Origin: Planctopirus limnophila DSM 3776
GTDB lineage: Bacteria; Planctomycetota; Planctomycetia; Planctomycetales; Planctomycetaceae
Length of the DNA: 32,000 nucleotides
Assembly (NCBI RefSeq): GCF_000092105.1
Contig: NC_014148.1
Coordinates: forward strand, 2,730,001-2,762,000
Direction of reading: 5' to 3'
Shown: one piece after another, positions 1,035 to 22,761 of the stretch
Numbering within the stretch: position 1 is the first letter of the stretch
Layout: each line of letters starts with the position of its first letter
Notes under the pieces: model-generated
What the model was told of the DNA's origin: nothing
Databases searched by the model: none
Seen by the model: the letters and a program-made list of their open reading frames with translations, nothing else
Position numbers and translations under genes: made by a program

Positions 1035-3317
1035 TCACGAACGACGACGCACACGAATTCGAGATGCAAGTCTCAGATCCTGGGCCCCCCAAGACAGTTT
1101 CTCCATCTCAGTAACCATTTCATTGTATACATTTGCCTTCCCTTCCGGGTCCCGGATTGTAAGAAGCAAAACAAGCTTTTGGGGTTCCTTACACCTGAAA
1201 CCATCACGATTAAGAATCTCTAGATGAAGACGCCAGTTCTTACAAATAGGCCCTGCGGTAAAGGCCCGATAATAAAACTTCAGAGGAGACCACTTAAACC
1301 CCTCAGAGACCATACGAGCCTCACCACCCCGAGTTACGTCTTTTGGAGCGGGCCTGAGTTGAGGATTATATACTTCTTTCCCCGTTTCGTTATTCTTCAT
1401 TACTGTCCCTAAACTCGCCGTCAGGTTCGTACGACAGTACTCCATACCGAATCGCGCATCTGTAGGCGGATCGTAAGCTAAAGTCATGAAGACTTCCGCT
1501 CGCAATCCTTTATTGGGAATGACGAGAGAACTTGGCATGGGGAATTGATGCTTCTCAAAGAAATGGCGATCAGTCAATTCAGCATGAAAGATGACCGTAG
1601 CCGAGGACTGCGTGCAATTCAGAATTTCTGACACATCTCCCGGACTCCCAAAACCCTTATAACGAACATCCAGGGCATCTGGGCAGCCTGATCTAAGAAA
1701 TGCAGAATGGGCAATCAGTCCTTTGACATATGCCGGAGACAAATTGCCTTCTGGCTCAAGCTCGCGATATATGTTCGCGGCAATGTTTGAAATATGAGGA
1801 GCAGCAAAACTGGTACCAATATTCTCGGCCAGATTTCCGTGGCCATCTGTAGATACTACGCCGCATTGCAAGCAATCCCCAGTTTCATCACAGTTGCCAC
1901 CGTAGTGACTGACTTCTGGTTTAATGTAGAAATGTGGCGCGGGACCACGTCGCGAAAATCCCGAAGGTTCATCAATTCCAACACATGACGATTGATTACT
2001 GATGTGAGCGATCGATCCAACGGTCAATCCTCGAACGGAATCAGCAGGAGGACAGATTCGATCGTTCTCACCCAAGTTCTCTGGTGGCCAAGTGCGGAGT
2101 GGAGGTGTTTCATAGTTTCCTGCTGCAATTACAAACAGTACATTGCGCTTCTTTGCAATTGAGTCCAGCTTACAGGCCAGAAGCGAAAACCTCGCATCAG
2201 AACATGGTGTTGCTTGGCCTAGGGAAAGATTCCAAACTCTCACATCGGAGTGGTCGCGAACTGCATTCTCGATTACAGTAATTAAATCATACTCTGAGAT
2301 TTGACCACTAGCATCAATGGCAACCACGTCGACAACACGAGACTGCGCTCTTGGGAATCGATTATCTGCGCCATTTAGTGCCCGACTATTCGCGATTAGG
2401 CCAGCAACAAAACTTCCGTGATTGAAGTCGTGTTGCGTTTTGACCACCACATCACGTCTCGCCACGTATTCTTGAAGTCGCCTGTTGGTTGGATCTGTAC
2501 CACTGTCAATCACCCCAACAAGTCCATATTCCTTAGCTGGATCAAAACTTGGGAACCGCCTTTCGTCGAGTTTACCTACAATATTTGCCGCCGTACGAAC
2601 AAGGCGAAACTCAGGAAACAGTCCTATGCTTTGCGTACCCACGAAGGCTGCCAACGCTTTTATGGACTTCGTTGTCACGGATTTCACGGCGTAGACAGTT
2701 ACATCATCACCATAGTCAACCGCCTCAAGATCTGGCAACGCCTCTGATCTCGCAACAGCCTTAAACTCCTGCTCAATAAGCTTATCAACTGCGTCAACGC
2801 CGTGACGAAACAGGCGAATTCGAATGGGAGCGTTCTTCCTTTTTGCCGTTTTGGCTATATACTCTGGCGAATACCCTTCAAGTGCATCTTTTGCCTTAAA
2901 CGCAAGAAGGCGATTAAGTGTCGAAATGTTCGCTTGATGCTTTTTTGTTTGACCCTGCTCAATCTCATAAGCCAACGCCCTGAGCCCTTCGGAACTCACA
3001 CTTACCAACAACTCTGATGGACCTTCAACACCAATGATGGGGCAGGTTTCAGAATTAAACAAAGTGCCTGGCCGGTATGATTTGGCCCCTGCCTCAGGTT
3101 TCAGCAGGACTTTTGCTACGGCAGGGATTGTAGGATGTTCTGCGAACGAAGCCGAAAACTCCTTTCGCAGAGATGCAACTTCGCTTGAATACTTCTTGCG
3201 CAACTCTTGCGTGACAGGCTCAAAGATTTTTGTTTCGCCCCCAGCATTGGGATCGAGACGATAATCCAAGTCTTTACGGGCCAAAACCACCTTCATGGGT
3301 AAGAATATTTTAGGCAC
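1035..3317 (-). CDS. Subtilisin-like serine peptidase (MEROPS S8), IetS-like, with an N-terminal extension of about 260 aa and a C-terminal domain of about 200 aa
   Basis: The catalytic triad motifs appear in S8 order: Asp in GVIDSGTD, His in HGSFVAGLIA, Ser in GTSFAAPHISN. The oxyanion Asn lies in VIAAGNY. The start is GTG 3317..3315, preceded by AGGAG at 3329..3325 with 7-nt spacing. It overlaps the ATPase stop by 8 nt. An alternative ATG lies at 3296. Confidence 0.85.
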   Translation of the reverse strand: MPKIFLPMKVVLARKDLDYRLDPNAGGETKIFEPVTQELRKKYSSEVASLRKEFSASFAEHPTIPAVAKVLLKPEAGAKSYRPGTLFNSETCPIIGVEGPSELLVSVSSEGLRALAYEIEQGQTKKHQANISTLNRLLAFKAKDALEGYSPEYIAKTAKRKNAPIRIRLFRHGVDAVDKLIEQEFKAVARSEALPDLEAVDYGDDVTVYAVKSVTTKSIKALAAFVGTQSIGLFPEFRLVRTAANIVGKLDERRFPSFDPAKEYGLVGVIDSGTDPTNRRLQEYVARRDVVVKTQHDFNHGSFVAGLIANSRALNGADNRFPRAQSRVVDVVAIDASGQISEYDLITVIENAVRDHSDVRVWNLSLGQATPCSDARFSLLACKLDSIAKKRNVLFVIAAGNYETPPLRTWPPENLGENDRICPPADSVRGLTVGSIAHISNQSSCVGIDEPSGFSRRGPAPHFYIKPEVSHYGGNCDETGDCLQCGVVSTDGHGNLAENIGTSFAAPHISNIAANIYRELEPEGNLSPAYVKGLIAHSAFLRSGCPDALDVRYKGFGSPGDVSEILNCTQSSATVIFHAELTDRHFFEKHQFPMPSSLVIPNKGLRAEVFMTLAYDPPTDARFGMEYCRTNLTASLGTVMKNNETGKEVYNPQLRPAPKDVTRGGEARMVSEGFKWSPLKFYYRAFTAGPICKNWRLHLEILNRDGFRCKEPQKLVLLLTIRDPEGKANVYNEMVTEMEKLSWGAQDLRLASRIRVRRRS

Positions 3318-4413
3318 TAGCGGGCTCCTGATTCAAACGTTCTGATATATAGGACTGTGAAAGCCCGAAGAGCTCAGACAGCTTCTTCTGAGTGAACCGT
3401 TTCTTGTCAACCTTCCGAATCGCTCGAAGAATTGCAGCCACGTCGGATGTACCAGTAAAACGAGCACACATCTCAACTAAGTTGACTGATTGCTGATCGT
3501 TGACCACAGCCTCTCTTACCAGGTTTTCAGTAATGTCTTTAAGCTGTGCACCCGACATCCCCTCACTCAGGCACGCAGCGACCTCGACGTCCTGTGCTGT
3601 TGCAAACCGCCCCAGTACAAACCGTATCAGCTCCTGTCTCGCAGCCAGACCGGGAGTACTCATCTCGATTTTGTAGGCAAATCGACGCCAAACGGCAGGA
3701 TCAAGTAGGTGCGGATGATTGGTCGCCGCGAGAAGAACATGGTCCCGCCCCATTGCATCGATGTTTTGCATCAAACTAATCACAACTCGTTTCAACTCAC
3801 CTAATTCCCGATCGTCATCTCTCATCTTTGCCAACGCGTCGAACTCGTCAAGAAACAACACGCATGGACGTGATGCAGCGTGTTCGAAAAGTTGCCGTAT
3901 ATTCTTTGCAGTACTTCCTAGATAGGAAGAAATTAGTGCATCCGACCTAGCTGTGATGAGGGGATACTTCAGTTGTGCTGCAATATATCTAGCCAACTGA
4001 GTTTTCCCGACCCCTGGGGGACCATAAATAAGGAGAGATGGTGAGATACCGACACCGTTGGCAATCAGCCGATCAGCAGCCCTAAAATATAACAGGAATT
4101 GATCGACTACTTTCTGAACATCCTCCGAAAGGAAGACCGAAACATCGGCTTCAACTGGTCGCTCCTCGTCGGCAACTGGAATTCTTGATTCACCGTCCAC
4201 TGGCAGCAGTGCCTGGCCACCTTGTCGAGCTAGAGAGATGTTCGAAGCAGAACTCTTTCCGACAATCTGCCTCATACGCTTGGCAGCCGCCAACTCGCCG
4301 CCCGATTCGAGCCTGCGGGCAAGTGATTCCGAGTAGGCCAGCACTTTTTCGTGGTCGCCACTGGCAGCTCCCTCGATGATTTTATTGATGTCAAAAAGGT
4401 AGTCACGAATCAT
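3310..4413 (-). CDS. AAA+ ATPase (classic clade), IetA-like, with a C-terminal helix-turn-helix-like tail
   Basis: Walker A is GPPGVGKT and Walker B is VLFLDEFD. Sensor-1 is LLAATN and the Arg-finger region is VWRRF. The C-terminal KKLSELFGLSQSYISERL looks like an XRE-type HTH. The start is ATG 4413, with AAGGGG 7 nt upstream. Confidence 0.85.
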   Translation of the reverse strand: MIRDYLFDINKIIEGAASGDHEKVLAYSESLARRLESGGELAAAKRMRQIVGKSSASNISLARQGGQALLPVDGESRIPVADEERPVEADVSVFLSEDVQKVVDQFLLYFRAADRLIANGVGISPSLLIYGPPGVGKTQLARYIAAQLKYPLITARSDALISSYLGSTAKNIRQLFEHAASRPCVLFLDEFDALAKMRDDDRELGELKRVVISLMQNIDAMGRDHVLLAATNHPHLLDPAVWRRFAYKIEMSTPGLAARQELIRFVLGRFATAQDVEVAACLSEGMSGAQLKDITENLVREAVVNDQQSVNLVEMCARFTGTSDVAAILRAIRKVDKKRFTQKKLSELFGLSQSYISERLNQEPASA

Positions 4414-4460
4414 GCAGCGGCCCCTTGCGCGAATTTTCTCTGTTCACCAGCTCAAACGAC

Positions 4461-4489
4461 ATCGTATCGGCGATATTATCGTCAGTCAA
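4461..4489 (-). promoter_or_regulatory. Candidate sigma70-like promoter for the ATPase/S8 operon
   Basis: The minus strand reads TTGACT (4489..4484), a 17-nt spacer, then TACGAT (4466..4461), about 48 nt upstream of ATG 4413. The host sigma specificity is unknown. Confidence 0.3.
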
Positions 4490-4522
4490 TGCGATATTTT
4501 CGCAACAATTACCGATATTTTT
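4471..4522. promoter_or_regulatory. Three direct repeats of CGATATT(A/T)T(C/T) spaced exactly 21 bp apart; operator-like array
   Basis: The copies are CGATATTATC at 4471, CGATATTTTC at 4492 and CGATATTTTT at 4513. Copy 1 is the palindrome CGATA-T-TATCG (4471..4481). Copies 1 and 2 flank or overlap the candidate -35/spacer. A fourth copy, CGATATTATA, lies at 4805..4814. Confidence 0.45.
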
Positions 4523-4908
4523 GTCGGCTTTTTGGGCTTTCCGCTGCTGCTGTGTCTTCCTGGTTCTCCGCTAAGGTCAAAACCTGTCCTTTCTGACTTG
4601 AGTTTTGTTCGGATTAATTTGTTCGACCGAGACGACGTTTCGCAAAAATCCGATGCAGCCTCATTTTGAAGGAAGAGGGTTTCTCGGATTTTTGTCTTGC
4701 ACATCTCTCCAATTCATATTGGCACTCAAGTGCGACCAGCTTACCCGGTGGATTCTTGGTTCAATTTTGAACATGTAAGCGATTGTGATTGTACTCACGT
4801 ATTGCGATATTATAACTTGAGCATTCGCACCACCATATCAACAGCTCTCGAATAATACAGTTATAAGGAACCCATTCTCTTAATCGTCTCTATATATCAT
4901 TTTTAGCC

Positions 4909-5232
4909 TTAACTATTTGGCCCGTTAAATATTGTCGGCTTTGTGGGTGTCACTGCAATAACGGCTTCATACTTCACTCCAATTGCTATTGCCGCGATTT
5001 CAAGAACAAATAACGTTTTCGTGATAATATGCTGCTGAGTGAGGCTTTCAGGAAATGTTGCGACCCATGTCGTCGTAAGATTAGTTTTTTCCCACGGAGC
5101 AGATATATATTCATAGAATGTGTCTCTCTGAGTATCGCTTGCACTCTTGAGATCAATTGTTAGGATCGCGTTAATGATTTGAACCTTATAACTGAGGAGT
5201 TGATGTTCACGAGCGGGATTCCTTAGTTTCAC
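4909..5232 (-). CDS. Hypothetical protein, 107 aa, GTG start, AT-rich
   Basis: It is the only ORF in the AT-rich stretch immediately downstream (28 nt) of the glycosyltransferase stop. It has no ATG start, no clear SD and no recognisable motif. Confidence 0.3.
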   Translation of the reverse strand: MKLRNPAREHQLLSYKVQIINAILTIDLKSASDTQRDTFYEYISAPWEKTNLTTTWVATFPESLTQQHIITKTLFVLEIAAIAIGVKYEAVIAVTPTKPTIFNGPNS

Positions 5233-5259
5233 GCTTAGTAATGTATCAACCGGAGTGAA

Positions 5260-6885
5260 TCAGTCGCCAGATAGAACAAGCACCATGTCATGTACGTATT
5301 TCTCTGCATGAGTGATCAAGGATTTGTGAATTTCCCGCATTCGCTCGGGCGTGATGTAGTGGGCGGTCACCTGTTGGTTTTCGGGCTTGGGAGTGGTCTG
5401 TTGCCCCGCCTGAAACTGCCTGCTTTTGGTCAGGCTGATTCCGGCAGCGTGCAGCACCTGGGCGACGTGCACATCTTCCTGCCAATGCTGCTGGGGCTCG
5501 CTGGCTGCCACAATCGACACGGCTTTGGGGCTCAATAAATAACCGGCCCCGCCGCTGGCTGTCTCGAATGGCCTGCCCGCCGCCACACGCTGCGGGGTGG
5601 GAGCCCCGACGTAATCGGCGGTCATCCGGTCGCGGGCCAAGATTCGGGCCACATGCACATAGGTGTCATCGTCGCACTTCAGCACTCTGGCGAAATTTCG
5701 GCTTGATTGCAGCCACCGGCAAAACCAGATCGTTTTTTCGGTGAGATGCTGGTAATCGTCCGGGCAGGGGAGCAAAAGCATATCGCCCCGTTTGTCCGGC
5801 AGTTCAACCAGATCAGGACGGCCCACCAGAAACACCAGTTCCACATCGGCGGGCAAGTCTTTTCCCCAAGTCTGGCGAATGGCTTCCCGCTTCTCGCGAT
5901 ACCGGGCTTGCTCGTTGTCGGCTGACAGTACCCCAATGATCAGCCGTCGATAGTCGCTTTTTGGGATCGCTGCGGGCGCGGGTTGTAAAGTGGCAGAGGC
6001 TGGCATCTGCTGCAGCCGGTCGAGTGCCCCCACTTCGCGGGCAATCTCGTTGAATCGCTCGATCGAGAGCCGCCCGGGGGCTGTGTAGTTGGCCTGAATT
6101 TGCTGGAACGATGGGTAAGCGAGTTCGGCAAACCCCAGCAGATCATTCCGGGCTTTGACTGACCAGGCAAACCCCTTGTAGGGTGATCCGTCCGCATAGC
6201 CGTACAGATGAATCCAGCGAAGCCACGGCAGGCATTTCACAGAACGCCCGCCTTGCCGGTATTTTTCCGGGATGTAGGGCTCAATGCCACCATGGCCGCG
6301 AACGTCAGGATGAAAGCCCAGAAATGAATCCCGCTTGGCGACGAAACAGCCGGTTCCACAGGAATTGATTTCGAATGGGGCCGCGTGGGGGTTGTCGGCT
6401 GATGGGTGAGTCGCCCAGTCGCCCCAGTTGCCGTTGGATCCATATCTGGGCAGGTAATGCGTGCCGACGATCGCGGGTTTCCCATCTGCGTTGATCAGCC
6501 GCCGCCGCAAGTTCGGGCCGAAGTACAGCCCGTCGTCAATGGTCGCTGCGAACGCCACCAGCCGGACCAGAACACCCGTATCGAGGATCACATGGGAATC
6601 AATGCAGCAGACGGCATTGCCGGTCGCATGATCGAACACCGCTTGCTTGGCCGGGCCTGCTCCCGGAGGTTCGGGCAGGTGCAGATATCGAGCGTTCGCA
6701 ATGTCTGCAACATGTTCCCGTTCGGCTTTGATGTGGGTTTCCTTGGCCGATTGGGAAATGACCAGAATTTCCACCTGATCCGTCAGGCCCAGGTCGCGGC
6801 GCGTGCGTTGCAGATCAATCAACGTGAACCACAAAGCCCGCTGATCGTCACAAGTGGGAATGCCGATGGTGAGTGCTGGATTCAT
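5260..6885 (-). CDS. Two-domain glycosyltransferase: N-terminal GT-A/GT2-like domain fused to a C-terminal GT31 (beta-1,3-galactosyltransferase/Fringe-like) domain, 541 aa
   Basis: ATG 6885..6883 lies 2 nt after the fibre stop (6890..6888). The N-terminal domain has TIGIPTCDD, the CIDSHV (DxH) motif and GTGCFVAKRDSF. The C-terminal domain has IIGVLSADNEQARYREKREAIRQTWG, PDDYQHLTEKT and KCDDDTYV, matching the three classic GT31 motifs. Confidence 0.85.
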   Translation of the reverse strand: MNPALTIGIPTCDDQRALWFTLIDLQRTRRDLGLTDQVEILVISQSAKETHIKAEREHVADIANARYLHLPEPPGAGPAKQAVFDHATGNAVCCIDSHVILDTGVLVRLVAFAATIDDGLYFGPNLRRRLINADGKPAIVGTHYLPRYGSNGNWGDWATHPSADNPHAAPFEINSCGTGCFVAKRDSFLGFHPDVRGHGGIEPYIPEKYRQGGRSVKCLPWLRWIHLYGYADGSPYKGFAWSVKARNDLLGFAELAYPSFQQIQANYTAPGRLSIERFNEIAREVGALDRLQQMPASATLQPAPAAIPKSDYRRLIIGVLSADNEQARYREKREAIRQTWGKDLPADVELVFLVGRPDLVELPDKRGDMLLLPCPDDYQHLTEKTIWFCRWLQSSRNFARVLKCDDDTYVHVARILARDRMTADYVGAPTPQRVAAGRPFETASGGAGYLLSPKAVSIVAASEPQQHWQEDVHVAQVLHAAGISLTKSRQFQAGQQTTPKPENQQVTAHYITPERMREIHKSLITHAEKYVHDMVLVLSGD

Positions 6886-6887
6886 GG

Positions 6888-8174
6888 TTATGGTTCCTCG
6901 GGTGGCGGGCCTTCCGTTCCCGCTGATGTTCCTGTTCCGCCCCCTTCGCATGGGTAACTGGCTGTTGTTCCGCAAGGAACGGTCAAGGTGGCAGCAGTTC
7001 CAGGCACGACAAGTTGTGCCGGGCACGATCCACCCCCGGAGACACTGCAGGACGTGGCGAGGTTGTAGAGACTGTGAGTCACGCCACCGACCACACACCA
7101 GGCAGCGGCCGCCAGCGTGTAACTGCAAGTCCCTGTCGCAGCCGTCCCGGTTCCGCTCGTTGTCCCTGTCCCTGTTGGGGCCGTGGTGCCAGTGCCGCCG
7201 CTTGTTCCCGTTCCTGTGCCTGTGGGTGCCGTTGTCCCAGTGCCAGTGCTGGATGGATCGCCTGTGTTTGTCCCCTCGGTGGGTGGCGATGTTGGGCCGC
7301 TTGTCCCTGTCCCGCTGGTCGTTCCGGTGCCTGTGGGTGGAGTTGTTCCGGTTCCGGTCGTTGTCCCCGTTCCCGATGGCGTGCCTGTGCCACTCGAACA
7401 ATCGGCGGGGGCCGGGCCGCAAGGCGTGGTCACAATCTGACCGGGATATTCGCCCGGGTAATCAGGCGGGCAGGCTTCACAGCCATCTTGGCCGGAACAC
7501 ATGCCACCACTGCCGACAACCCAGGGGAACACACCCGTCCACTCCCAAGCCGTGGAGGCCAGGGGCGGACAGGTGGCTGTTGTCCCTGTGCCGGTATCTG
7601 TTCCCGTTCCGGTATCTGTGCCAGTGCCCGTTCCAGTGCTAGTGCTCGGCGTGCAATCGCCGCATGTGACCGGGACAAGCTCCAGTGTGGCTGGCCAGAG
7701 TGGTGTCATTTCATCAGGGGCCGGAGTCGCGGTCAGTGTGCGGGTGATCAAGCAATCCATGTCGTTCGTGCGGAAGGTGACGGTCTGACCCTGCAGGCTC
7801 AAGACAACCACCGGCGGCTCCGCCGATTCATTCATGCTGATCGACATGTAACGCAAGAGAGAGATGTCGGCAGAACTGGTTGTCCAGCCGCAATCACTCG
7901 ATCGGGAAAAGCATCGCGTTCCGTTGAACTGCTCCAGTTCGCCCCCAAAGCCGCTGGCCTCGATGCGGAAACACTCCGTTTCGCAATCAGTGCAGGGGGG
8001 CTCCTCATCCCATGGGCCGGTGAAGTCGATCGGGGGCCAGGGGCCGCCGACTGGGACGCCTTCGCCCTGGGGCCGTTGGAGTTTCCACAAACGCTCAATG
8101 TCCACGTCGTGGATGTTCCCCTTGCGCTCGAGGGCATTCAGTCGCTGCTCGAATGAACGGAAGTCTGCGGGCAT
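6888..8174 (-). CDS. Tail fibre / receptor-binding candidate with Thr-Gly repeat linkers and Cys-rich modules (428 aa from ATG 8174; alternative GTG at 8183)
   Basis: It is the last virion-type gene after the tape measure and tail-tip genes. AGGAG lies 8 nt upstream of ATG 8174. It has an N-terminal coiled segment, two (T-G)n tracts and at least 20 Cys. Confidence 0.7.
   Translation of the reverse strand: MPADFRSFEQRLNALERKGNIHDVDIERLWKLQRPQGEGVPVGGPWPPIDFTGPWDEEPPCTDCETECFRIEASGFGGELEQFNGTRCFSRSSDCGWTTSSADISLLRYMSISMNESAEPPVVVLSLQGQTVTFRTNDMDCLITRTLTATPAPDEMTPLWPATLELVPVTCGDCTPSTSTGTGTGTDTGTGTDTGTGTTATCPPLASTAWEWTGVFPWVVGSGGMCSGQDGCEACPPDYPGEYPGQIVTTPCGPAPADCSSGTGTPSGTGTTTGTGTTPPTGTGTTSGTGTSGPTSPPTEGTNTGDPSSTGTGTTAPTGTGTGTSGGTGTTAPTGTGTTSGTGTAATGTCSYTLAAAAWCVVGGVTHSLYNLATSCSVSGGGSCPAQLVVPGTAATLTVPCGTTASYPCEGGGTGTSAGTEGPPPEEP
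7128..7397 (-). repeat. Long degenerate (ACN GGN)n tract encoding about 90 aa of Thr-Gly(-Ser-Pro) low-complexity linker
   Basis: Residues 263-352 of the fibre read SGTGTPSGTGTTTGTGTTPPTGTGTTSGTGTSGP...TGTGTTAPTGTGTGTSGGTGTTAPTGTGTTSGTGTAATGT. Codons vary, so this is not an exact DNA tandem repeat. Confidence 0.85.
7575..7649 (-). repeat. Short Thr-Gly(-Asp) tract in the fibre gene
   Basis: Residues 179-203 read PSTSTGTGTGTDTGTGTDTGTGTTA. Confidence 0.8.
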
Positions 8175-8188
8175 GCCTGCCACTCCTG

Positions 8189-10096: not shown

Positions 10097-13069
10097 TTAC
10101 TTGATGCTGCCGCGTTGGGCCCGCTGCCGTTGGGCGGCGGCGTTCTGGCCGACAGCCTGCTGCTGGGCCTTCAGGTTGGCAATTTCCTGTTGCATGGCTT
10201 CCTGAGTGGAAAGAATGTCAGCCGTCTGTTTGACCTGTTCTTTTGCCGAATCGATCAAATCCTTTTGGTTCTGATTACCGGCTTTCAGTCCATCGAGGGT
10301 CTGAGTGGCAACATCCGCTTGAGCGGCTGCCAGTTCTCTCGGATCGACTTCACCCCTGGCAAATTGCCGACGCACTCGACGTTCTTCTTGCTCAATGGCC
10401 TGCTGCCGTTCGCGGTCGCGTTGCCGCAGCATGCGTGCCTTTTCCTTAGTTCCAGCATCCCGGAAAGCCTGCTGGTTTTCTGGATTGGCGTTGAAGTCGT
10501 CAACCGCCTTCTGCCCCGCCTGTTCGCCAGCCCGCTTCGCTAAGGCTGCTGCCACTTTGCGAGGGTCTTGATTCTGAATGAACTGCTGAGCATCGAATTT
10601 GGCGTGTCCGAGAGCGTTCTGAGCATTTTGTTTCCGCATTTCCCTCGCAGCAGCGGCTTTCTGCTCCAACTCTTCTTCTCTCGCCAATTTCCTTTCGGTT
10701 TCACTCAATTGAAAGTCGATAGTGGCCTGCGTCAGCTCCTTCTTTAACCGTGCTGTTTCTTCCGCAGCTTCACGTTCATCCTTTGCGGCCTTGATCAGTC
10801 GGTTGCCCTCTTCCTGAATCAACTGCAACCTACGTCGAAACACTTCCTCAGCGGTTCGATCTTCCTCGCGATGGCGAAGTTCATCAGTCTGCGCGAGTTT
10901 CGCACGTTTATTGCCTACTCTCTCAAGATTCTTGAGTTCTTCCTGAACAGAGGTGTTTCGAAGCATTGTTGACAGTTCGTTCTCTGACTCGATCTCCAAT
11001 TTACTGGCTTGAACTCGCACATTCGCGAGACGCGACTCTTCCGCAAAAACTCGCTGCTCTTGTTCAATTCGAAAATCTGCGTCACTTTTGGCCAGAGACT
11101 GACGCATATCGATGGTGGCCTTGAGCCGATCGGTCTCAATTTCCCTAAGTTTTTCGCTCAGGTTGTCGGTTTCTTCCCGTGTAAGACCTTCCCGCTTCAA
11201 CTGGGCCTTCAATCGATCTTCTTCCTGGTCGATCAGAGCCGATTTTTCTTCCCATTCAGCCTTTATCAACCTTTGCTTTTCAGCATGAACTTTTTGAGAA
11301 GAACTGATCCTCAAGCCGAGCAATTCGCGTTCAGTTGCTCCACTGGCCTCGGCAATTTCGATTTCGTGCCGGCCTCGGGATTCAACCAGCTCAAGTTCTT
11401 TTTCGAGCATTCCTCGCCTGGCAATCAGAGCCTCTTTAAGCACTCCTTCATTTGCGATTCGTGCCCGGTCAATTTTTTCATTAACCTTGGCCGTTTCGAT
11501 GGCCTCATCTTTTCCGGTGAGCGTGTTTTCTCTCGACTGCAATTGCGACAGGCGGCGTTCGTAGGTTGCGGTATCGATCCGCTCCTCGTTCAGTTTTTCC
11601 TGGGCACGACGGTTCTTATCTTTTTGCTCTGGCGTCAGGCTCGAATCTTGCGAGTCCAGATCAAGGCGTGCCTGTAACTCTGTCTGCTCGATCACCTTCT
11701 GCTTTAGCTTTTCTCTTTCACCAACAACATCAGAAACCGTTTTTAACTCCCCGATGCGCTTTGATTCCGAAGCCTCCTTTTTGTCTTTTTCAGCGTTCTC
11801 ATTGATCTGGCGAATTTCGTTGTAGGTCTCTCGGGTCAATTCCTTCAGTTTCGCCATGCGCTCCGTCATACGACCCATTTGATCGAGCCGCCGTTGTTCG
11901 GCGATGTATGCCTCGCCCCCACCCTCAGTGATGGTGGCATAAAGGGACTGATAGCCCCACAACCCCTCTTTCAGAAGGCGTTCCGACTCCTTGAGCCCTT
12001 CCACCTGATATCGAGCCCACTTGGTGGCTTCTTTGTTGATTCGCTCGTAAATCGGGGGAAGAGGATTCAATCCGGCCACAATGGCACCTGCCGCACTGCC
12101 GACACGGCCCAGCTCTTTTGTGGCAGTGTTTCCCAAATCCCGATATCCGGCTTTGATTCGGTCGAGGTTGCTTTCAACCTTAACTGCCAGATCATCTGCG
12201 AGGTCGATCCCCTTTTGCTTTGCAAGAGTATCCAGACTGACACCCAAATCTGCTGATTCACGTTTCAGGGCTTCAAACTGTCGGCGTTGTTCATCGGTGG
12301 CTCTGCTGGATTGCTCAAACGTCTTTCCAGTACGGGCCATTACAGCTCCGAGACCTTGAATCGTTGCCGTAAGTATCAAAGCAGCGGGCAGGGCTTTATC
12401 AACAACCTTTAGAGCGACACCAGCTCCTTTGCTAAGTGCCCCTGTGCTTACTCCGACTCTTCCCGCTATCTTTCCAGCAGCTCCTGCTGTTCTCGCTCCC
12501 ACACGGGCAGCGGCTCGACCAAATCGGGCAGTGTTGCTATTGCCAATGGCTCTGCTGGCAGCTCGGGCCCCACGTACGGCATTGATCGAGCTCGACCTTA
12601 ACGAAGCGCTGAGTTTGGCTCTCGCTTCAGTCAATTGAGCCGTTCGAGCAATCAACTTTCCCGTGCTCTCAGCGGCTTTTTCAGTTTGTAGGCCCCACCG
12701 CGTTAATCTCACGGTGTTTTCATCAAGCTGTGATCTTAAGCCCGTCCATGTCGTGAGCTGCCTGGCGTTTGCCGCGGTTAACTGCTCCGACACCTTGCGC
12801 TGTGCTGTGGCCGCTGCAGAATAAAGTTCGGCTGCATAGTAGGTCGTTCCCATAGCAGCGCCGGTTTCAGCAATGGCCCCGGCCCAGCTCCTTTGCCGGG
12901 GGGCGGCTTCTTCCATCTGTTTGGCCATGGCGGCCACACTGCGGGTCAGCTCCTGCTGCTCCTGTGTGGTCTGATGGGCCGTCTGGCCCACCTGCTCAAT
13001 CCGTTGGCCCATTTCAGCCAGACCGGGGCCCACCTCATCACGCACGCCAAACGAAAAAACTGCGGCCAT
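10097..13069 (-). CDS. Tail tape measure protein, 990 aa
   Basis: The protein is very long, with Ala/Gly-rich hydrophobic segments near the N-terminus and extensive Glu/Arg/Lys/Gln coiled-coil sequence. It lies directly downstream of the chaperone pair and upstream of the tail-tip gene. Confidence 0.85.
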   Translation of the reverse strand: MAAVFSFGVRDEVGPGLAEMGQRIEQVGQTAHQTTQEQQELTRSVAAMAKQMEEAAPRQRSWAGAIAETGAAMGTTYYAAELYSAAATAQRKVSEQLTAANARQLTTWTGLRSQLDENTVRLTRWGLQTEKAAESTGKLIARTAQLTEARAKLSASLRSSSINAVRGARAASRAIGNSNTARFGRAAARVGARTAGAAGKIAGRVGVSTGALSKGAGVALKVVDKALPAALILTATIQGLGAVMARTGKTFEQSSRATDEQRRQFEALKRESADLGVSLDTLAKQKGIDLADDLAVKVESNLDRIKAGYRDLGNTATKELGRVGSAAGAIVAGLNPLPPIYERINKEATKWARYQVEGLKESERLLKEGLWGYQSLYATITEGGGEAYIAEQRRLDQMGRMTERMAKLKELTRETYNEIRQINENAEKDKKEASESKRIGELKTVSDVVGEREKLKQKVIEQTELQARLDLDSQDSSLTPEQKDKNRRAQEKLNEERIDTATYERRLSQLQSRENTLTGKDEAIETAKVNEKIDRARIANEGVLKEALIARRGMLEKELELVESRGRHEIEIAEASGATERELLGLRISSSQKVHAEKQRLIKAEWEEKSALIDQEEDRLKAQLKREGLTREETDNLSEKLREIETDRLKATIDMRQSLAKSDADFRIEQEQRVFAEESRLANVRVQASKLEIESENELSTMLRNTSVQEELKNLERVGNKRAKLAQTDELRHREEDRTAEEVFRRRLQLIQEEGNRLIKAAKDEREAAEETARLKKELTQATIDFQLSETERKLAREEELEQKAAAAREMRKQNAQNALGHAKFDAQQFIQNQDPRKVAAALAKRAGEQAGQKAVDDFNANPENQQAFRDAGTKEKARMLRQRDRERQQAIEQEERRVRRQFARGEVDPRELAAAQADVATQTLDGLKAGNQNQKDLIDSAKEQVKQTADILSTQEAMQQEIANLKAQQQAVGQNAAAQRQRAQRGSIK

Positions 13070-13072
13070 GGG

Positions 13073-13264
13073 TTACTTCCTTTTCTTCGCTTTGCGGGCG
13101 GCCTCTTCCTGGATCAGCTCCCAACAGACCAGCCATTCCTCGGCGACATCGGCAGGGAGTGCATCGAACTCCACCAGCGACAGCCCCAGCCGCTTGCGCA
13201 GTGGGGCCGATCGCAGCAGATGAGCCATCACGTCGAGAGCCTCCGAGCGTCCCCGGCCTCTCAT
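13073..13264 (-). CDS. gpT-like tail assembly chaperone segment, in the -1 frame relative to the upstream ORF; possibly expressed as a frameshift fusion
   Basis: There is an ATGA overlap with the upstream stop (13264..13261). The -1 frame stays open 17 codons upstream of the ATG. It sits between the tube and tape-measure genes. Confidence 0.5.
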   Translation of the reverse strand: MRGRGRSEALDVMAHLLRSAPLRKRLGLSLVEFDALPADVAEEWLVCWELIQEEAARKAKKRK

Positions 13265-13629
13265 CCAGAGACGGGCACGCTTGCGGACTCCCCCAGCGGA
13301 GTCCCTGTCAGCAGCTCAATGGCTTTCTTGGTGATCTGCTGGAAAGCCGTGGGAGACTGCCAGACAACATTCTCCAACGCCTCCCGGCTGAAGGGCTGCA
13401 GCTCACCATTGGCCTGTTGGACGTTCCCCCAGTCTGTCACCAGCGACAGCCGCAATTGAGTGAGTCGGGCATACTGCTGGCCCGAGTCATCCCGGGGGAG
13501 CGATTCCCACAGGGCGTCGTGCTGCATCGCTTCCGCAAAGGTCGGTTTGCGAAAGCTGATCCAGAATTTTCCCTCGGCGGCATCGATATCGAGCACCACG
13601 GAACGTGTCACTTCTTTGAGCTGAAACAT
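13261..13629 (-). CDS. gpG-like tail assembly chaperone, 122 aa
   Basis: The call rests on position immediately before the tape measure. ATG 13629 has AAGGA upstream. The size is typical of this class. Confidence 0.55.
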   Translation of the reverse strand: MFQLKEVTRSVVLDIDAAEGKFWISFRKPTFAEAMQHDALWESLPRDDSGQQYARLTQLRLSLVTDWGNVQQANGELQPFSREALENVVWQSPTAFQQITKKAIELLTGTPLGESASVPVSG

Positions 13630-14090: not shown

Positions 14091-15077
14091 TTAGGCCACG
14101 TCCGCAAAAGCCCAGGTAATCGCCGAGTTGTTGCTCATCGGCTTGAGCACCTTGAATTCCAGAGGCTGCTGGATGACTCCCTTCGAGCGAGCCGTATCGG
14201 CTTTCTGAATTGAGAGCCGGTTGAAGGTGGCTGTCACCTGCGTGAAGTTGGTGTCGACGGCCCCTGTCCCCATGTGTGGAATCTTCATGACCAGCGAAGC
14301 CGTGACTTCCTGTTCCATGTAATCCATCTTGCGGATGGTCTCGGCCCACACTTTGGAGGTCTTGGGCGGGTTCAATGTGAGACTCTGCACTGTTTGCCCG
14401 GAGGGCATGGTGCGGAGCAGTTTTCCCCCGAGATAATCGGGAATCAGTCCGTGCGTGGCCACCAGATTGAAGCCGGAGAAGGGAACACCATTCACCCCCG
14501 CCAGATTGAGTGTCACGTCGGTAAAATCACACTCAATCAGCTTGAAGCGGTCGTAAGGGACAGTGGGAGCATTGCCGACTTCCGGCCCTTCCTCTTCATC
14601 GGCCACCTGGGGGATGGTTTCCCGGCCCATCAGATCGAGATTGATCGTCACTGGCCCACCATCCTGACCGGCCAGCGTCCCCTGATTGACGCGCAGGCCC
14701 TGATAGCGGTTGTTGTCGAAGTTGACCCCCTCATAGTAGTTGATGCTTTTTGACGGGCGGAATTTGACTTCCGGACTGCCAAAAGCCCACTCAATGAGGT
14801 ACTGGGCCAGACTCATCTCGCCCTCGACGGGATGCCACCCAAAGAGTGGCAGCGACAAGGGGCCTTGCGGCATGCCACGCACGAAGCGGCTGTGGGTCTC
14901 CTGACGGAAGCCGGTGAACTGGTTGCCGGTGCGGACTTCGGTTTGATGCTTCACGTCAAACGTGTCGTAGGGGCAATGCCAGAGGACGGGGTCATTGGGA
15001 TAATCGCTCCAGGTCGATTCATCGACAATGGTGATGAACGACTCGAACCCGGTTTGAATTTGGACATCTTGCGGCAT
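14091..15077 (-). CDS. Major tail tube protein candidate, 328 aa
   Basis: ATG 15077 has AAGGAG 8 nt upstream. It is upstream of the chaperone pair and tape measure. The sequence is beta-rich, with the LIEWAFGS segment typical of tube proteins. Confidence 0.6.
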   Translation of the reverse strand: MPQDVQIQTGFESFITIVDESTWSDYPNDPVLWHCPYDTFDVKHQTEVRTGNQFTGFRQETHSRFVRGMPQGPLSLPLFGWHPVEGEMSLAQYLIEWAFGSPEVKFRPSKSINYYEGVNFDNNRYQGLRVNQGTLAGQDGGPVTINLDLMGRETIPQVADEEEGPEVGNAPTVPYDRFKLIECDFTDVTLNLAGVNGVPFSGFNLVATHGLIPDYLGGKLLRTMPSGQTVQSLTLNPPKTSKVWAETIRKMDYMEQEVTASLVMKIPHMGTGAVDTNFTQVTATFNRLSIQKADTARSKGVIQQPLEFKVLKPMSNNSAITWAFADVA

Positions 15078-19237: not shown

Positions 19238-19741
19238 TCAGCCAGCGAGTTCGATCGCTTCGAGACTGGAGGCCATGGCCGGGGTCGGCGTGGTGGCGTT
19301 CCAGAGTTGATTCAGCAGGAAATTCCCTGAGCTGGTGGCATTTCTGGCCAGTCTCACGGAGTAGGTTTGTTGTGCGGTTGAATTGGGTGCGTCAGTAAAC
19401 TGGAACACATCGGTTTCTGTGGAATAGGCCTGTCGCTGCAGACCAAAGACAGCAATGACTGTCGTTCCCCTAAGCACTGTCAGCAGGAAATACTTGTTCG
19501 ACGGCCCGTCATCGATATTGTTGCTGCTGCCGCTGATCTGGATTTGCAGCCGCACCAGGTTGGCCGCATTGGCCGGAGTAATGGTGCGACTGAGGACTTC
19601 CGTGCCGCTGGTATTGGTCGGCGTCGTGGACATGGTGGACGTGATCGTGGCGGTATCGGTTCGCGTGGTGACCACGCGCTGCAGCACCACACTGGCACCG
19701 CCGCCGCCACCTTCACCACTGTTGGCATTGCCGAATTTCAT
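19238..19741 (-). CDS. Hypothetical beta-rich virion-associated protein, 167 aa, with a poly-Gly and Thr/Ser-rich N-terminus
   Basis: ATG 19741..19739 lies 2 nt after the upstream stop (19746..19744). The N-terminus reads GEGGGGGAS followed by TTRTDTATITSTMSTTPTNTSGT. Confidence 0.55.
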   Translation of the reverse strand: MKFGNANSGEGGGGGASVVLQRVVTTRTDTATITSTMSTTPTNTSGTEVLSRTITPANAANLVRLQIQISGSSNNIDDGPSNKYFLLTVLRGTTVIAVFGLQRQAYSTETDVFQFTDAPNSTAQQTYSVRLARNATSSGNFLLNQLWNATTPTPAMASSLEAIELAG

Positions 19742-19743
19742 CG

Positions 19744-20004
19744 TTACTCGGCTCCCCACTCGATCGATTGATTGGCAGCACTGGCCTTAACAGCCAATTG
19801 TGAGGGCTGTGTTTTCAGGTCGGGGAGAAACTCCCCAGCCGCCAGCGTGATTCCATCGGCATCAGCATCGTTGACATCAATCACATTCACGGTGCCGGTG
19901 TTCCCGGGCATGGCCCGGATCAACGTGCGCAGGCCTGTGGTGGCCTTGTCATGAATGGGCACATGAGCCTCGGTGCTGATGTTGTTCATTCGTCGCGAAA
20001 GCAT
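19744..20004 (-). CDS. Hypothetical small phage protein, 86 aa
   Basis: ATG 20004 is preceded by GGGGAG at 9-nt spacing. The longer ORF-track start (20145) would overlap the upstream gene. Confidence 0.45.
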   Translation of the reverse strand: MLSRRMNNISTEAHVPIHDKATTGLRTLIRAMPGNTGTVNVIDVNDADADGITLAAGEFLPDLKTQPSQLAVKASAANQSIEWGAE

Positions 20005-20613: not shown

Positions 20614-21528
20614 TTAGGTCACCGCTGGCTCATTGTTCTTGAGCGCTTCCGTCAACATGATCGGGACGTTGCCCACTTCGGTGGGGATGGGTGCGGGAGT
20701 ACCGGTGTTGTTGGTCGCTGTGCGGCTCTTGCGGAGTTCGTTCAGCGAATTCGTGTTCATCAGGAACATGTCGGGCCGGACATCGGCAGGGAACTTGGCC
20801 AGCAGATCGAACATCAGGTCATCGTTCAGCGTGTGACCCGCTGTTCCATCGAGGTTCGCAATTCGGGCCGCACTGTGGCGAGAACCAAGCTGGAGACCCA
20901 CACGGGTGTTGATTTCCTGACAGATTCCCGTGTAGGGCTTGCCATTGGCATCGTAGAGCGTCTGCTCTCGTTCGGGAGTCACGACCAGGCCCGTTCCATC
21001 CTGAGCCCAGAGCCACTGGACATGCTGCGGGCCGAACTTCACCGCCCAGACGGAACGGCCACCAGCTCCTTCGGCGTCCAGTGTCATGCCGGTGAGATCG
21101 TATTGAGCAACGAGGCCTGGAAAGCCTTTGGCATCGTTGTTGACGCCATAATAAAACTGCATGGCCAGATGGATCATGGCTCCCAACATGATCCCCTGAG
21201 CCTCGCGAGCCATGGCCGCTGCCGGGCCGTCTTCATCGGCCATGGCGACCGCTTTGTCCATGGCCCACTGCGGGTTGAAAATCATCGCTTCAAACGTCTT
21301 GTTGACGTAATTGTTTTTCAATCGATCCGTACCTTCGTTGGCACTGCGGAAGCCACCTCTGGGGACTTCGTTTCGCACCAGCACAGGGTAGCTGATCCCT
21401 TTGATGGTGCGGGCCGCTCCCAGTTGCAGCTCCGGAGTGGCAACAACGGTTTCTTCAATCAGCCCGACTGTGCGGTCAGAGCCGTTTTTCTTGGCGATAT
21501 CCAAGAGAGTGATCATTCCCGTGGGCAT
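20614..21528 (-). CDS. Major capsid protein, 304 aa
   Basis: ATG 21528 has AAAGGA upstream. It follows the protease/scaffold gene. The N-terminus MPTGMITLLDIAKKNGSDRTVGLIEE and the overall length fit phage major capsid proteins. An HK97 fold is assumed, not verified. Confidence 0.75.
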   Translation of the reverse strand: MPTGMITLLDIAKKNGSDRTVGLIEETVVATPELQLGAARTIKGISYPVLVRNEVPRGGFRSANEGTDRLKNNYVNKTFEAMIFNPQWAMDKAVAMADEDGPAAAMAREAQGIMLGAMIHLAMQFYYGVNNDAKGFPGLVAQYDLTGMTLDAEGAGGRSVWAVKFGPQHVQWLWAQDGTGLVVTPEREQTLYDANGKPYTGICQEINTRVGLQLGSRHSAARIANLDGTAGHTLNDDLMFDLLAKFPADVRPDMFLMNTNSLNELRKSRTATNNTGTPAPIPTEVGNVPIMLTEALKNNEPAVT

Positions 21529-21624
21529 GGCGAAATCCTTTCTGGCCCACATGGGCCGACACTTGGCAAAACATCAAACGTGAACAACGGACTGACGGAA
21601 CACGGGTGGCGGAAAGCGTGCGGC

Positions 21625-22761
21625 CTAACTCTGCTGCGTTTGGCCAGGCATCTGGAACCCTGCCGCAAACCGCGACAGACCAGGGGGCAGTCGATCGGCG
21701 AATTCAGCAGCTTTGGCCGCCAACTTGTCTTTCTCGGGTTCTTTGGCTGGTGGAGCGGAAAAGCTGACGGGCTGTGCTCCTGCCACTCCCAGCCCCCGCA
21801 AAGCATCGAGCTTGCTCTGCAGTTGCTTGTTTTCTTCGCCCACATCGAGAGCGAATTGGGCGGCGGCCTGAGTGAGCGAGAGCCCCTTGGCGAAATACTT
21901 GGCCCCATGCGTTTCGCCGAAGGTCTTCATGTAAAACTCGCCGGATGGCTTTTCTTCGTCCTCTGGCTCCTCATCATCGGAGAGACCATCCTTCGCGGGC
22001 TCGGTAGCCTGCTCGTCATTGCTCAAACCGGCTGAGTCCTCCGTGACTCCTCCGTTGGCCTCCAGGGCCACCGAAGTGCCGGTGTCTGCACCATAGGGGC
22101 AGATGGCCAGCCCCAGCAGTTCCCACTCTCGGAAAATCACCACGGGGCCTTCGACAGTCTGGCCGTTGACTTGAGCACTCTGGCCCGCCCCCAATTCCTC
22201 AATGCGGTATTTCCGCAGGTTCATGAGAATCGAGGCCTGATAGGGAACACCCAGGGCTGACTTGTGCAACACCTCGGCGGCTCGATCCTGCCCGAACGGG
22301 GTCAACATCCCCTTGATGACCAGCATCAAGTCCGATGGCTCGAAGACATCGGCATACCCCAGCACCTCGCCGGGGTTGTGGCAGTAATCGATCGTGATGC
22401 GGGGCGGGGCAGTCATCCCCGCGAAGTCATGCACGCAGCGATCCCAGTACCAGTGGGAAGCCACGCCACCTGTGCGAGCGTTGACCGTGACGGCCACACT
22501 GTCCGCTAAGCCAGTGGCTTCCTGCGGCTTGCCGTCCTCTCCCATGCCCTCTTTCGTGGTTTCGGAAAGTCCCTCTTTGCTGGCCTCACTCTCGGGCTCC
22601 TCGGTGTCATCGGACAAGCCCTCTTTGGTCTTGTCTTCGGTCGAGGTTTCGGAGAAGGCCCCCTTCTTGTGCCGGGGGTCGATCGTCAGCGCTGCCGCAA
22701 AGCACATCGCTTTGGCGGTCGGCTTGGCGCGTGGGGCCAGTGGCTTCGTGAGACTAGGCAT
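21625..22761 (-). CDS. Prohead protease / scaffold fusion candidate, 378 aa
   Basis: ATG 22761..22759 lies 2 nt after the portal stop. The central domain with ITIDYCHNPGEVLGYAD resembles the His region of HK97-type (S78) prohead proteases. It is flanked by acidic repeat linkers and ends in a helical scaffold-like tail. Confidence 0.55.
   Translation of the reverse strand: MPSLTKPLAPRAKPTAKAMCFAAALTIDPRHKKGAFSETSTEDKTKEGLSDDTEEPESEASKEGLSETTKEGMGEDGKPQEATGLADSVAVTVNARTGGVASHWYWDRCVHDFAGMTAPPRITIDYCHNPGEVLGYADVFEPSDLMLVIKGMLTPFGQDRAAEVLHKSALGVPYQASILMNLRKYRIEELGAGQSAQVNGQTVEGPVVIFREWELLGLAICPYGADTGTSVALEANGGVTEDSAGLSNDEQATEPAKDGLSDDEEPEDEEKPSGEFYMKTFGETHGAKYFAKGLSLTQAAAQFALDVGEENKQLQSKLDALRGLGVAGAQPVSFSAPPAKEPEKDKLAAKAAEFADRLPPGLSRFAAGFQMPGQTQQS

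Follow-up and report, generated by a model that had tools for sequence, protein, structure and literature searches.

What does a phage-borne glycosyltransferase (GT) modify when its gene stands directly behind that of a putative tail protein? The question is raised by a gene at positions 5260-6885 of a 32,000-nucleotide (nt) stretch of the Planctopirus limnophila DSM 3776 genome (contig NC_014148.1, positions 2,730,001 to 2,762,000), which we refer to as the window and which is a prophage or phage of Planctopirus (Planctomycetota). The gene encodes two GT domains in one polypeptide and follows the gene of a Thr-rich protein of 431 amino acids (aa). Judging from the sequence comparisons, the enzyme is probably a soluble, cytoplasmic, bifunctional O-glycosyltransferase that builds a short O-glycan on the (Thr-Gly)n linkers of the 431-aa protein. 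The gene and its sites are listed in window coordinates, with the basis of each assignment in brackets (ORF, open reading frame; AF2, AlphaFold2; pLDDT, predicted local distance difference test; dN/dS, ratio of nonsynonymous to synonymous substitution rates).

5260-6885, minus strand: bifunctional GT gene, 541 aa (ORF translation, Pfam, AF2, dN/dS)
5998-6885, minus strand: N domain, aa 1-296, predicted GT27-like, that is, polypeptide GalNAc-transferase-like, GT-A catalytic domain (AF2, Foldseek, profile)
6592-6600, minus strand: D96-S-H98, DxH metal-binding motif, GAT TCC CAT (aligns to LDAHCE of TgGalNAc-T3 and GalNAc-T7)
6208-6210, minus strand: H226, C-terminal His in CLPWLRWIH, candidate third metal ligand (invariance, alignment)
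5956-5997, minus strand: inter-domain linker, aa ~297-310, predicted disordered (pLDDT <50 for aa 297-306)
5311-5955, minus strand: C domain, aa 311-525, GT31 beta-1,3-glycosyltransferase-type GT-A domain (PF01762, profile, Foldseek)
5665-5673, minus strand: D405-D406-D407, DxD motif in KCDDDTY, GAC GAT GAC (aligns to KADDDTY of C1GalT1 and KADDDSF of B3GalT6)

The reading frame runs from an ATG at 6885-6883 to a stop codon at 5262-5260 on the minus strand. Every GT motif that a preliminary description of the stretch had listed could be read in the translation, namely GIPTCDD (aa 8-14) and CIDSHV, which contains D96-S-H98, in the N-terminal half, and AIRQTWG (aa 335-341), DDYQHLTEKT (aa 375-384) and KCDDDTYV, which contains D405-D407, in the C-terminal half. 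SGGAGY (aa 444-449) and EDV (aa 470-472) are additional GT31 motifs. The same description had called two GT domains and had staked the call on GT31 and GT2 profile hits. Both halves scored above the Pfam gathering cut-offs and far above chance: PF01762 (Galactosyl_T) matched aa 332-416 (E=1.2e-13, 51.7 bits, cut-off 23), and PF00535 (Glycos_transf_2) matched aa 7-138 (E=5.9e-7, 30 bits, cut-off 23.3). The AF2 model of the whole protein (mean pLDDT 85) likewise contained two GT-A domains, with a helical region between the N-terminal catalytic domain and the GT31 domain. Where the GT has its inter-domain linker, the paralogues P0004 and P0005 carry a Cys-rich insert of ~100 aa. Compared with three relatives, the gene had no internal stops and a dN/dS of 0.11-0.16 in each half (dS up to 1.4); both GT-A domains are intact and under purifying selection. 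A longer call of the same frame (720 aa, 5260-7422, TTG start) was rejected, as homologues begin at the ATG of 6885. We found neither a signal peptide nor a transmembrane (TM) segment in the GT; the peak 19-aa hydropathy, 1.7, fell in a GT-A segment just past the DxH motif and was not taken as a membrane span. As such, the protein is expected to be soluble and cytoplasmic, in the compartment where tailed phages assemble. Scans against PHROGs, PADLOC and NCBIfam gave no match for the GT.

To which enzymes is the N-terminal half most closely related? A domain-only AF2 model (pLDDT 84, predicted TM-score (pTM) 0.85) was compared with the PDB using Foldseek, and the top 50 matches were all polypeptide GalNAc-transferases (ppGalNAc-Ts) from human, mouse, Drosophila and Toxoplasma (E 7e-15 to 3e-10, query-normalised TM-score (TMq) 0.56-0.68), with sequence identities of 13-20% in the fold alignments. 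A sequence profile of the domain, built from stand-alone homologues, was compared with PDB sequences and matched ppGalNAc-Ts alone over its whole length (E 2e-6 to about 0.02). Its strongest matches were the generic GT2 enzymes TarP and TarS, but only over the first ~125 residues, and the second half of the domain matched ppGalNAc-Ts only. TarP is a prophage-encoded teichoic-acid glycosyltransferase. D96, H98 and H226 were invariant in a 21-member alignment; H226 aligns with the His of GHVFR/GHIYR in ppGalNAc-Ts, and the GGxE segment HGGIEPY (family consensus FGGEEGY) aligns with WGGEN of the Gal/GalNAc-T motif, with GG and E kept and W and N not. By profile and modelled fold, the N domain is nearest to the ppGalNAc-Ts and keeps the DxH, the C-terminal His and, in part (GG and E), the Gal/GalNAc-T motif. 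Since Pfam gave no match to a ricin B-type lectin domain in the GT and a type II membrane anchor is also absent, we call the domain GT27-like rather than a canonical ppGalNAc-T. The earlier label for this half, GT2-like, therefore stands as to the GT-A fold, while its family part is sharpened to ppGalNAc-T-like (GT27-like) by the fold and the whole-domain profile; PF00535 takes in GT27 enzymes too. An exhaustive search returned 3,178 homologues of the N domain at E<1e-3, mostly stand-alone or otherwise fused proteins, and just 4 of the 150 best representatives carried both domains. The best viral fold match in BFVD was a 288-aa 'uncultured Caudovirales' protein (target-normalised TM-score 0.82), for which a GT-A-type domain is the only annotation.

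The C-terminal half was assigned in the same manner. A profile made from stand-alone homologues of the C domain and run against solved enzymes matched B3GalT6 over its full length (2e-20) and the T-synthase C1GalT1 (2e-15), with further matches to B3GalT5, B3GNT2, B3GLCT, CHSY3 and Manic Fringe; Foldseek returned B3GNT2, B3GalT5 and B3GalT6 (E 7.5e-15 to about 1e-12, target-normalised TM-score 0.53-0.61). Among homologues D405 and D407 are invariant and D406 is nearly so, and IRQTWG (336-341), DDD (405-407), SGGAGY (444-449) and EDV (470-472), all invariant or nearly invariant, align to motifs of B3GalT6 and C1GalT1. Pfam, profile, modelled fold and motifs thus agree with the GT31 assignment proposed earlier, and by these comparisons the C-terminal half is a complete member of the family, with RxxW, DxD, GGAGY and ED motifs. 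To our knowledge, all characterised GT31 enzymes extend a pre-existing sugar and none starts on protein. GT31 had also been thought mostly eukaryotic and unusual in phages. The subfamily is indeed uncommon, but it is prokaryotic too: strict motif scans found 106 loci over 185,579 bacterial and archaeal species, mostly chromosomal and spread over Planctomycetota, Verrucomicrobiota (including Akkermansia) and Acidobacteriota, together with 49 IMG/VR loci, and an exhaustive search gave many stand-alone prokaryotic copies of the domain. DNA glucosylation of the T4 type was rejected as a function, because both domains of the GT are GT-A and their relatives are directed to proteins or glycans; T4-type DNA glucosyltransferases have the GT-B fold.

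If the enzyme acts on a protein, the nearest candidate is encoded immediately upstream.

6888-8183, minus strand: 431-aa modular, Cys-rich, Thr/Gly-rich protein, probable acceptor and putative tail fibre or receptor-binding protein (composition, position)
7572-7652, minus strand: TG linker 1, aa 178-204, TPSTSTGTGTGTDTGTGTDTGTGTTAT, 14 Thr in 27 residues, candidate O-glycosylation region (composition)
7128-7397, minus strand: TG linker 2, aa 263-352, 38 Thr and 10 Ser in 90 residues, candidate O-glycosylation region (composition)
6883-6899, minus strand: junction of the putative fibre gene and the GT, with GAGGAA at 6899-6894, stop codon TAA at 6890-6888, a 2-nt spacer and ATG at 6885-6883 (sequence)

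This protein, the putative fibre, contains 19.3% Thr and 16.0% Gly and is the sole strongly Thr-rich protein in the window. It is laid out as an N-terminal domain, a TG linker, a Cys module, a second TG linker and a C-terminal domain. The length of TG linker 1 differs between relatives, and indels in TG linker 2 distinguish close relatives. In relatives of the locus, the C-terminal domain is swapped (L005) or an extra Cys module is present (L006 and L223); a swapped C-terminal domain would be typical of receptor-binding tips. The linkers were considered as recent slippage products, which we rejected, since Tandem Repeats Finder gave only weak, imperfect repeats; the DNA of TG linker 1 is not a clean tandem repeat. 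When the N-terminal domain of the fibre was used as query, no homologue came back, including the close relatives already known, which we read as a word-index limit, and scans of IMG/VR and metagenomes with a fibre profile recovered the same small Planctopirus clade only. At the junction, the stop codon of the fibre gene is separated from the ATG of the GT by CC on the coding strand, as the preliminary description had stated, and a Shine-Dalgarno (SD)-like hexamer, GAGGAA, lies 8 nt ahead of that ATG. We detected no promoter-like or terminator-like site between the two genes. The tight coupling to a Thr-rich protein claimed earlier is borne out by the gap, the hexamer and the composition of the partner.

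The two genes close the tail operon of the phage. The other genes that define this setting are listed here.

24815-26926, minus strand: large terminase
22754-24238, minus strand: lambda-type portal
20614-21552, minus strand: major capsid protein
14091-15077, minus strand: tail tube
13261-13629, minus strand: tail chaperone-like protein
10097-13069, minus strand: 990-aa protein in tape-measure position
3310-4413 and 1035-3317, minus strand: IetA and IetS, respectively, the Gao_Iet anti-phage defence pair (PADLOC)

On the minus strand the order is terminase, portal, capsid, tail tube, chaperone, 990-aa protein, 632-aa protein, 431-aa protein and GT, with the 431-aa gene as the last structural gene after those of the 990-aa and 632-aa proteins. 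Scans of the 632-aa protein against Pfam, PHROGs, NCBIfam and PDB sequences returned nothing. The GC content is 0.59-0.66 over the 632-aa gene, the fibre gene and the GT (0.59-0.60 for the GT itself, like the fibre gene) and 0.42-0.50 directly past the stop codon of the GT; gene order and this drop confirm that the GT is the last gene of the tail module. The low-GC cargo island beyond contains the complete Iet pair (IetA, E=4e-130; IetS, E=3e-251). The nearest homologue of the GT is from P. hydrillae (90% identity). The fibre-GT pair is kept in the window and in every related prophage (L001/L007, L005, L006 and L223), with a stop-to-ATG gap of 2 nt in L001, L006 and L223, as in the window, and of 6 nt in L005. 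Past the GT, L001/L007 carry a dCMP-deaminase-like protein and a patatin, L006 a type I restriction-modification system with an AAA_13 protein, and L005 small ORFs and an integrase. Considering that the pair is conserved and the downstream content is variable, the GT is the last conserved gene of the tail operon beside a defence-cargo hotspot, which is what the spot downstream of it looks like.

This position bears on lysogenic conversion, in which the prophage GT would modify an envelope glycan or surface glycoprotein of the host, alter the receptor and block superinfection. We regard this explanation as unlikely. It draws on the place of the GT, last before a variable defence and cargo island (IetAS), on TarP, which of all PDB sequences best matches residues 1-125 of the N-domain profile, and on the mostly chromosomal occurrence of the GT31 subfamily in the three bacterial phyla named above. 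However, the GT is coupled to the fibre gene without a promoter-like site of its own, its base composition is like that of the tail genes and unlike that of the cargo, and it is kept in every relative while the cargo turns over. In seroconverting phages, GtrB is membrane-bound and works with the GtrA flippase and GtrC. Like the enzymes of the Gtr phages and TarP, the prophage GT has a GT-A fold and is carried by a temperate phage, close to where the tail genes end, but it has no TM segment, Gtr partners were not seen among the scanned genes, and TarP matches the generic nucleotide-binding half of its N domain only. A Gtr-type seroconversion module was rejected on the missing TM segment, on the lack of any Gtr-type name, including that of a membrane partner, among the window genes scanned with Pfam and PHROGs, and on the presence of IetA/IetS downstream. 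The superinfection-exclusion or seroconversion role that had been offered as one option is thus disfavoured by the fibre coupling, the composition, the conservation and the lack of membrane partners seen.

We then return to glycosylation of the fibre linkers and to the partners of other fused enzymes. A Ser/Thr-rich partner was present at all eight distinct fused-GT loci with upstream sequence (8/8). In five of them (window, L001/L007, L005, L006 and L223) it is a TG-type fibre. L226 has a GT of 70% identity, and its upstream protein shares a Cys module with the window fibre at 72% identity (E=1e-23) but continues into (SGSD)n in place of (TG)n. In L227, where the GT is 46% identical, the upstream ORF closes with a tail rich in TG/S and with the same EEPxPEEP terminus. 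P. hydrillae and P. limnophila also have a chromosomal paralogue, with a GT ~45% identical, which stands behind a 489-aa protein made of three weakly related Cys modules that are split by (SSSSSP)n, with the C-terminus TTTAGPTTTEGPDQP. Linker make-up therefore varies by locus (TG, SGSD, SSSSSP), and hydroxyl-richness is constant. The phage fibre module and the host chromosomal cassette appear to share ancestry. That this paralogue adjoins another GT and an RHS protein would favour lysogenic conversion, but it likewise stands behind a Ser/Thr-rich protein, which points to the product of the adjacent gene as acceptor, and away from a generic glycan of the envelope.

Two of these loci have further features. 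The chromosomal cassette, outside any obvious prophage (L146 107-5612, on P. hydrillae contig47, and L002-L004 of P. limnophila), consists of a GT2-GT2-tetratricopeptide repeat (TPR) protein (669 aa), the 489-aa protein and a 637-aa enzyme whose fused GT27-like and GT31 domains are separated by a Cys-rich insert; in L002 of P. limnophila an RHS/YD-repeat protein comes next after it. In L226, an ATP-grasp TupA-like gene (1051-1734) lies between the Ser-rich fibre homologue and the GT and overlaps the GT start by 4 nt; its product may add a further modification.

Does the association extend beyond the fused enzymes? Homologues of the N domain, most of them stand-alone and ~280 aa long, occurred at 366 IMG/VR loci, and we scored their neighbours as Thr/Ser-rich when any 30-aa window of a mechanically called ORF held at least 57% Thr/Ser. 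Of 58 non-redundant loci, 26 had a Thr/Ser-rich ORF immediately upstream on the same strand, whereas such ORFs numbered 10 among 562 others (1.8%) and none among 56 downstream (Fisher p=5.6e-22). Several upstream partners reached 35-44% Thr; in L076, a 177-aa protein with 44% Thr is paired with a 284-aa GT. The 26 partners and those of two Planctopirus loci, 28 in all, fall into 20 BLAST-distinct families of 113-1981 aa. When loci with only a GT31 domain were taken as controls, a Thr/Ser-rich neighbour was present in 1 of 45 viral loci and in 4 of 75 bacterial loci, the latter against 3 of 3 fused loci. These controls are clean, and the association follows the GT27-like domain, which fits an N domain that is the protein-directed initiator and a GT31 domain that is the extender. 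The window enzyme also has an unfused form, in a marine-type phage contig (L074 1453-3746; L101 is the same contig), where the N domain (281 aa) and, after it, the GT31 domain (in a protein of 483 aa) are encoded by two genes that overlap by 4 nt. Taken together with the conserved fibre-GT pair and the 8/8 fused loci, the 26/58 viral loci lend strong comparative support to fibre O-glycosylation, the other role that the preliminary description had proposed.

The genes around the IMG/VR homologues match phage primase/helicase, tail-collar, tape-measure and integrase families, on the basis of which an origin of these homologues from eukaryotic giant viruses was rejected. Many of the homologues lie beside primase/helicase genes and an integrase was not detected in most sampled loci, which counts further against lysogenic conversion. 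Many of the otherwise unrelated Thr-rich partners (113-1243 aa) share a C-terminal motif, C-x3-4-C-[NK]-x-L-x-F (e.g. CLDNTCNKLGF), in L024, L034, L040, L046, L060, L066, L071, L076, L079, L083, L084, L087 and others; it may be a docking or assembly tag.

These neighbourhoods also bear on whether the GT has another target, such as the capsid, the tube, a 173-aa protein of the window (19238-19759), host proteins or a free oligo- or polysaccharide, in which case its adjacency to the fibre gene would merely reflect its position at the end of the tail genes. We consider this improbable. According to PMC12363180, the known substrates in mycobacteriophages are capsid and tail-tube subunits. In the product of 19238-19759, aa 31-53 are rich in Thr/Ser, an adjacent Thr-rich ORF is missing from about half of the N-domain loci in viruses, and in L226 the TupA-like gene stands between fibre and GT, its ATP-grasp family being associated with polysaccharide synthesis. 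Against this, the capsid and tube proteins of the window have no Ser/Thr-rich tails, the enrichment is confined to the immediately upstream gene, and the upstream partners are non-homologous and alike in composition only. The GT31 enzymes matched in the PDB, moreover, are all known to extend protein- or lipid-linked glycans. The 173-aa ORF, on the minus strand, lies just downstream of the capsid gene, among small genes ahead of the tail genes; its Thr/Ser-rich stretch is TTRTDTATITSTMSTTPTNTSGT, and it could be a second acceptor.

How would the GT act on the fibre? We infer the following scheme for the acceptor, the order of action and the biological benefit. The fibre gene and the GT are probably co-transcribed late in infection, and their tight spacing suggests coupled translation. 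In a first step, which would be the initiating, protein-directed reaction, as in ppGalNAc-Ts, the N domain, with Mn2+ held by D96, H98 and H226, would put the first nucleotide-sugar-derived sugar on the hydroxyls of linker Thr (or Ser) residues. In a second step, the GT31 domain, tethered via the ~14-residue linker of predicted disorder and using the DxD at 405-407 and the ED base at 470-471, would add a second sugar, probably beta-1,3-linked; the animal analogue of such a product would be a core-1-like Gal-beta-1,3-GalNAc. The linkers would thereby become mucin-like 'bottle-brush' segments, that is, extended, protease-resistant spacers that set the Cys-rich modules and the swappable C-terminal domain apart, and the dense glycans may stiffen, extend, solubilise or protect the fibre from proteases, or change its binding.

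Several observations weigh against this scheme. All Planctopirus phage copies have Ser (VISQS, S44; 6754-6756) in place of an Asp that is nearly invariant in the 'VVDN' strand of the family; the equivalent Asp is important in ppGalNAc-T1, and donor binding by the GT may be atypical. This strand binds the nucleotide in GT-A enzymes, and the clade-wide change may mean another donor. Sequence does not tell whether the N-domain family is retaining, like GT27, or inverting, like classical GT2 enzymes. The 431-aa protein has no detectable homology to known tail proteins in Pfam, PHROGs, NCBIfam or PDB sequences, so its role as a fibre or virion protein is deduced from position only. Lysogenic-conversion genes usually sit at the edges of cargo islands such as the one behind the GT. 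As to the viral loci, those with no immediately adjacent Thr-rich ORF, about half, include L016, L035, L037, L026, L047 and L055. Some N-domain loci adjoin nucleotide-sugar epimerases or other GTs, and the family need therefore not be exclusively protein-directed; four neighbour proteins, which were not assigned to individual loci, match the epimerase family phrog_540. Of the 366, the 58 loci analysed are the most similar; at 50% identity their GTs link up into a single cluster, so that the loci do not count as independent events. The 95th-percentile threshold for Thr/Ser was, in addition, derived from the very data to which it was applied.

The Ser at position 44 also bears on the idea that the GT, or at least its N half, is a decaying or non-catalytic remnant that was kept as a scaffold after loss of the nucleotide-binding Asp. 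While the substitution occurs in all Planctopirus phage copies, the N half has a dN/dS of about 0.12 over dS up to 1.4, the DxH, the GGxE and H226 are all kept, and the Asp-to-Ser change is fixed and conserved throughout the clade, not scattered. A remnant is therefore very improbable.

A broader reading of glycosylation by this family, which we put forward tentatively and hold to be less probable than not, is that tailed phages widely make mucin-like glycoproteins. The large GT27-like family, with its 366 IMG/VR loci and no match in the GenBank phage records, would then be a dedicated polypeptide O-glycosyltransferase for Thr/Ser-rich fibre or whisker proteins of the gene immediately upstream, fused in Planctopirus phages with a T-synthase-like GT31. 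With the same reserve, the GT could do in the cytoplasm, as one protein, what the core-1 pathway does in animals, and the family could be a prokaryotic or viral sister of the animal ppGalNAc-Ts, possibly informative on their origin.

Are there known systems of this kind? In enzyme families and logic, the closest is the mucin-type pathway of animals and apicomplexans (GT27, then the GT31 enzyme C1GalT1, the animal core-1 order), which uses the same two families in the same order of action as proposed here, and for which the acceptor is likewise a mucin-like segment, as presumed for the disordered Thr-rich segment in the Planctopirus prophage. In contrast with that pathway, the prophage GT would combine both activities in one soluble cytoplasmic polypeptide; it has neither a ricin-type lectin domain nor a membrane anchor, and no secretory pathway is involved. 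In sequence, its N domain is only remotely similar to GT27 (profile E about 2e-6; identities of 13-20% in the fold alignments), and the Asp conserved in the family is Ser. A second comparison is with serine-rich repeat adhesins, which are glycosylated sequentially in the cytoplasm by GtfA/GtfB and accessory GTs encoded beside the substrate gene. GtfA/B have the GT-B fold (GT4) and act on a secreted adhesin, whereas the prophage GT has two GT-A domains and a proposed phage acceptor.

In function, the closest precedent is virion glycosylation in mycobacteriophages. PMC12363180, citing Freeman et al. 2023, describes phage GTs of Che8 (gp110), Corndog (gp38) and Myrna that glycosylate capsid and tail-tube proteins, and states that virion glycosylation affects antibody recognition; this precedent had been named in the preliminary description and agrees with the source. 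The likeness would be that GTs encoded by a phage act, inside the host cytoplasm, on structural proteins of that same phage, while the substrates are capsid and tail tube in an actinobacterial host there and a tail-end fibre with internal linkers in a planctomycete host here. A sequence relationship of the GT to GenBank phages was not detected: tblastn of the N domain, the C domain and a marine homologue against 50,697 GenBank phage records, which should cover the mycobacteriophage GTs although the Che8, Corndog and Myrna records were not confirmed among them, gave no match at E<=1e-5 to 1e-8. In literature on GT31 or GT27 in phages, on Thr-rich or mucin-like phage proteins with GTs and on Planctopirus prophages, we found no description of a module of a Thr-rich protein and a GT27-like enzyme. 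Self-glycosylation of phages is thus already known, and the prophage case would be a variant of it, possibly with a general phage module behind it. As far as we know, virion self-glycosylation by phage enzymes has been shown only for a few mycobacteriophages.

If the fibre linkers are indeed glycosylated in this way, glycosylated mucin-like tail appendages would be common and overlooked in environmental phages, with a bearing on host recognition, particle stability and adhesion. The GT and its natural acceptor sequence would provide a compact, soluble, two-step O-glycosylation enzyme for glyco-engineering in bacteria, and the N domain would be a prokaryotic or viral relative of mucin-type initiators, so that the origin of the pathway could be tested by phylogeny and structure. 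A surface-protein cassette of the host, a Ser/Thr-rich modular protein with its GT, would also be common to the planctomycete chromosome and its temperate phages.

One further ORF lies between the GT and the defence pair.

4909-5232, minus strand: 107-aa ORF without a family match

This ORF is housed in an AT-rich spacer (4414-5259) that separates the GT from IetA; the Iet pair could have transcription of its own from promoter-like sites at 4489-4461 and 4406-4379.

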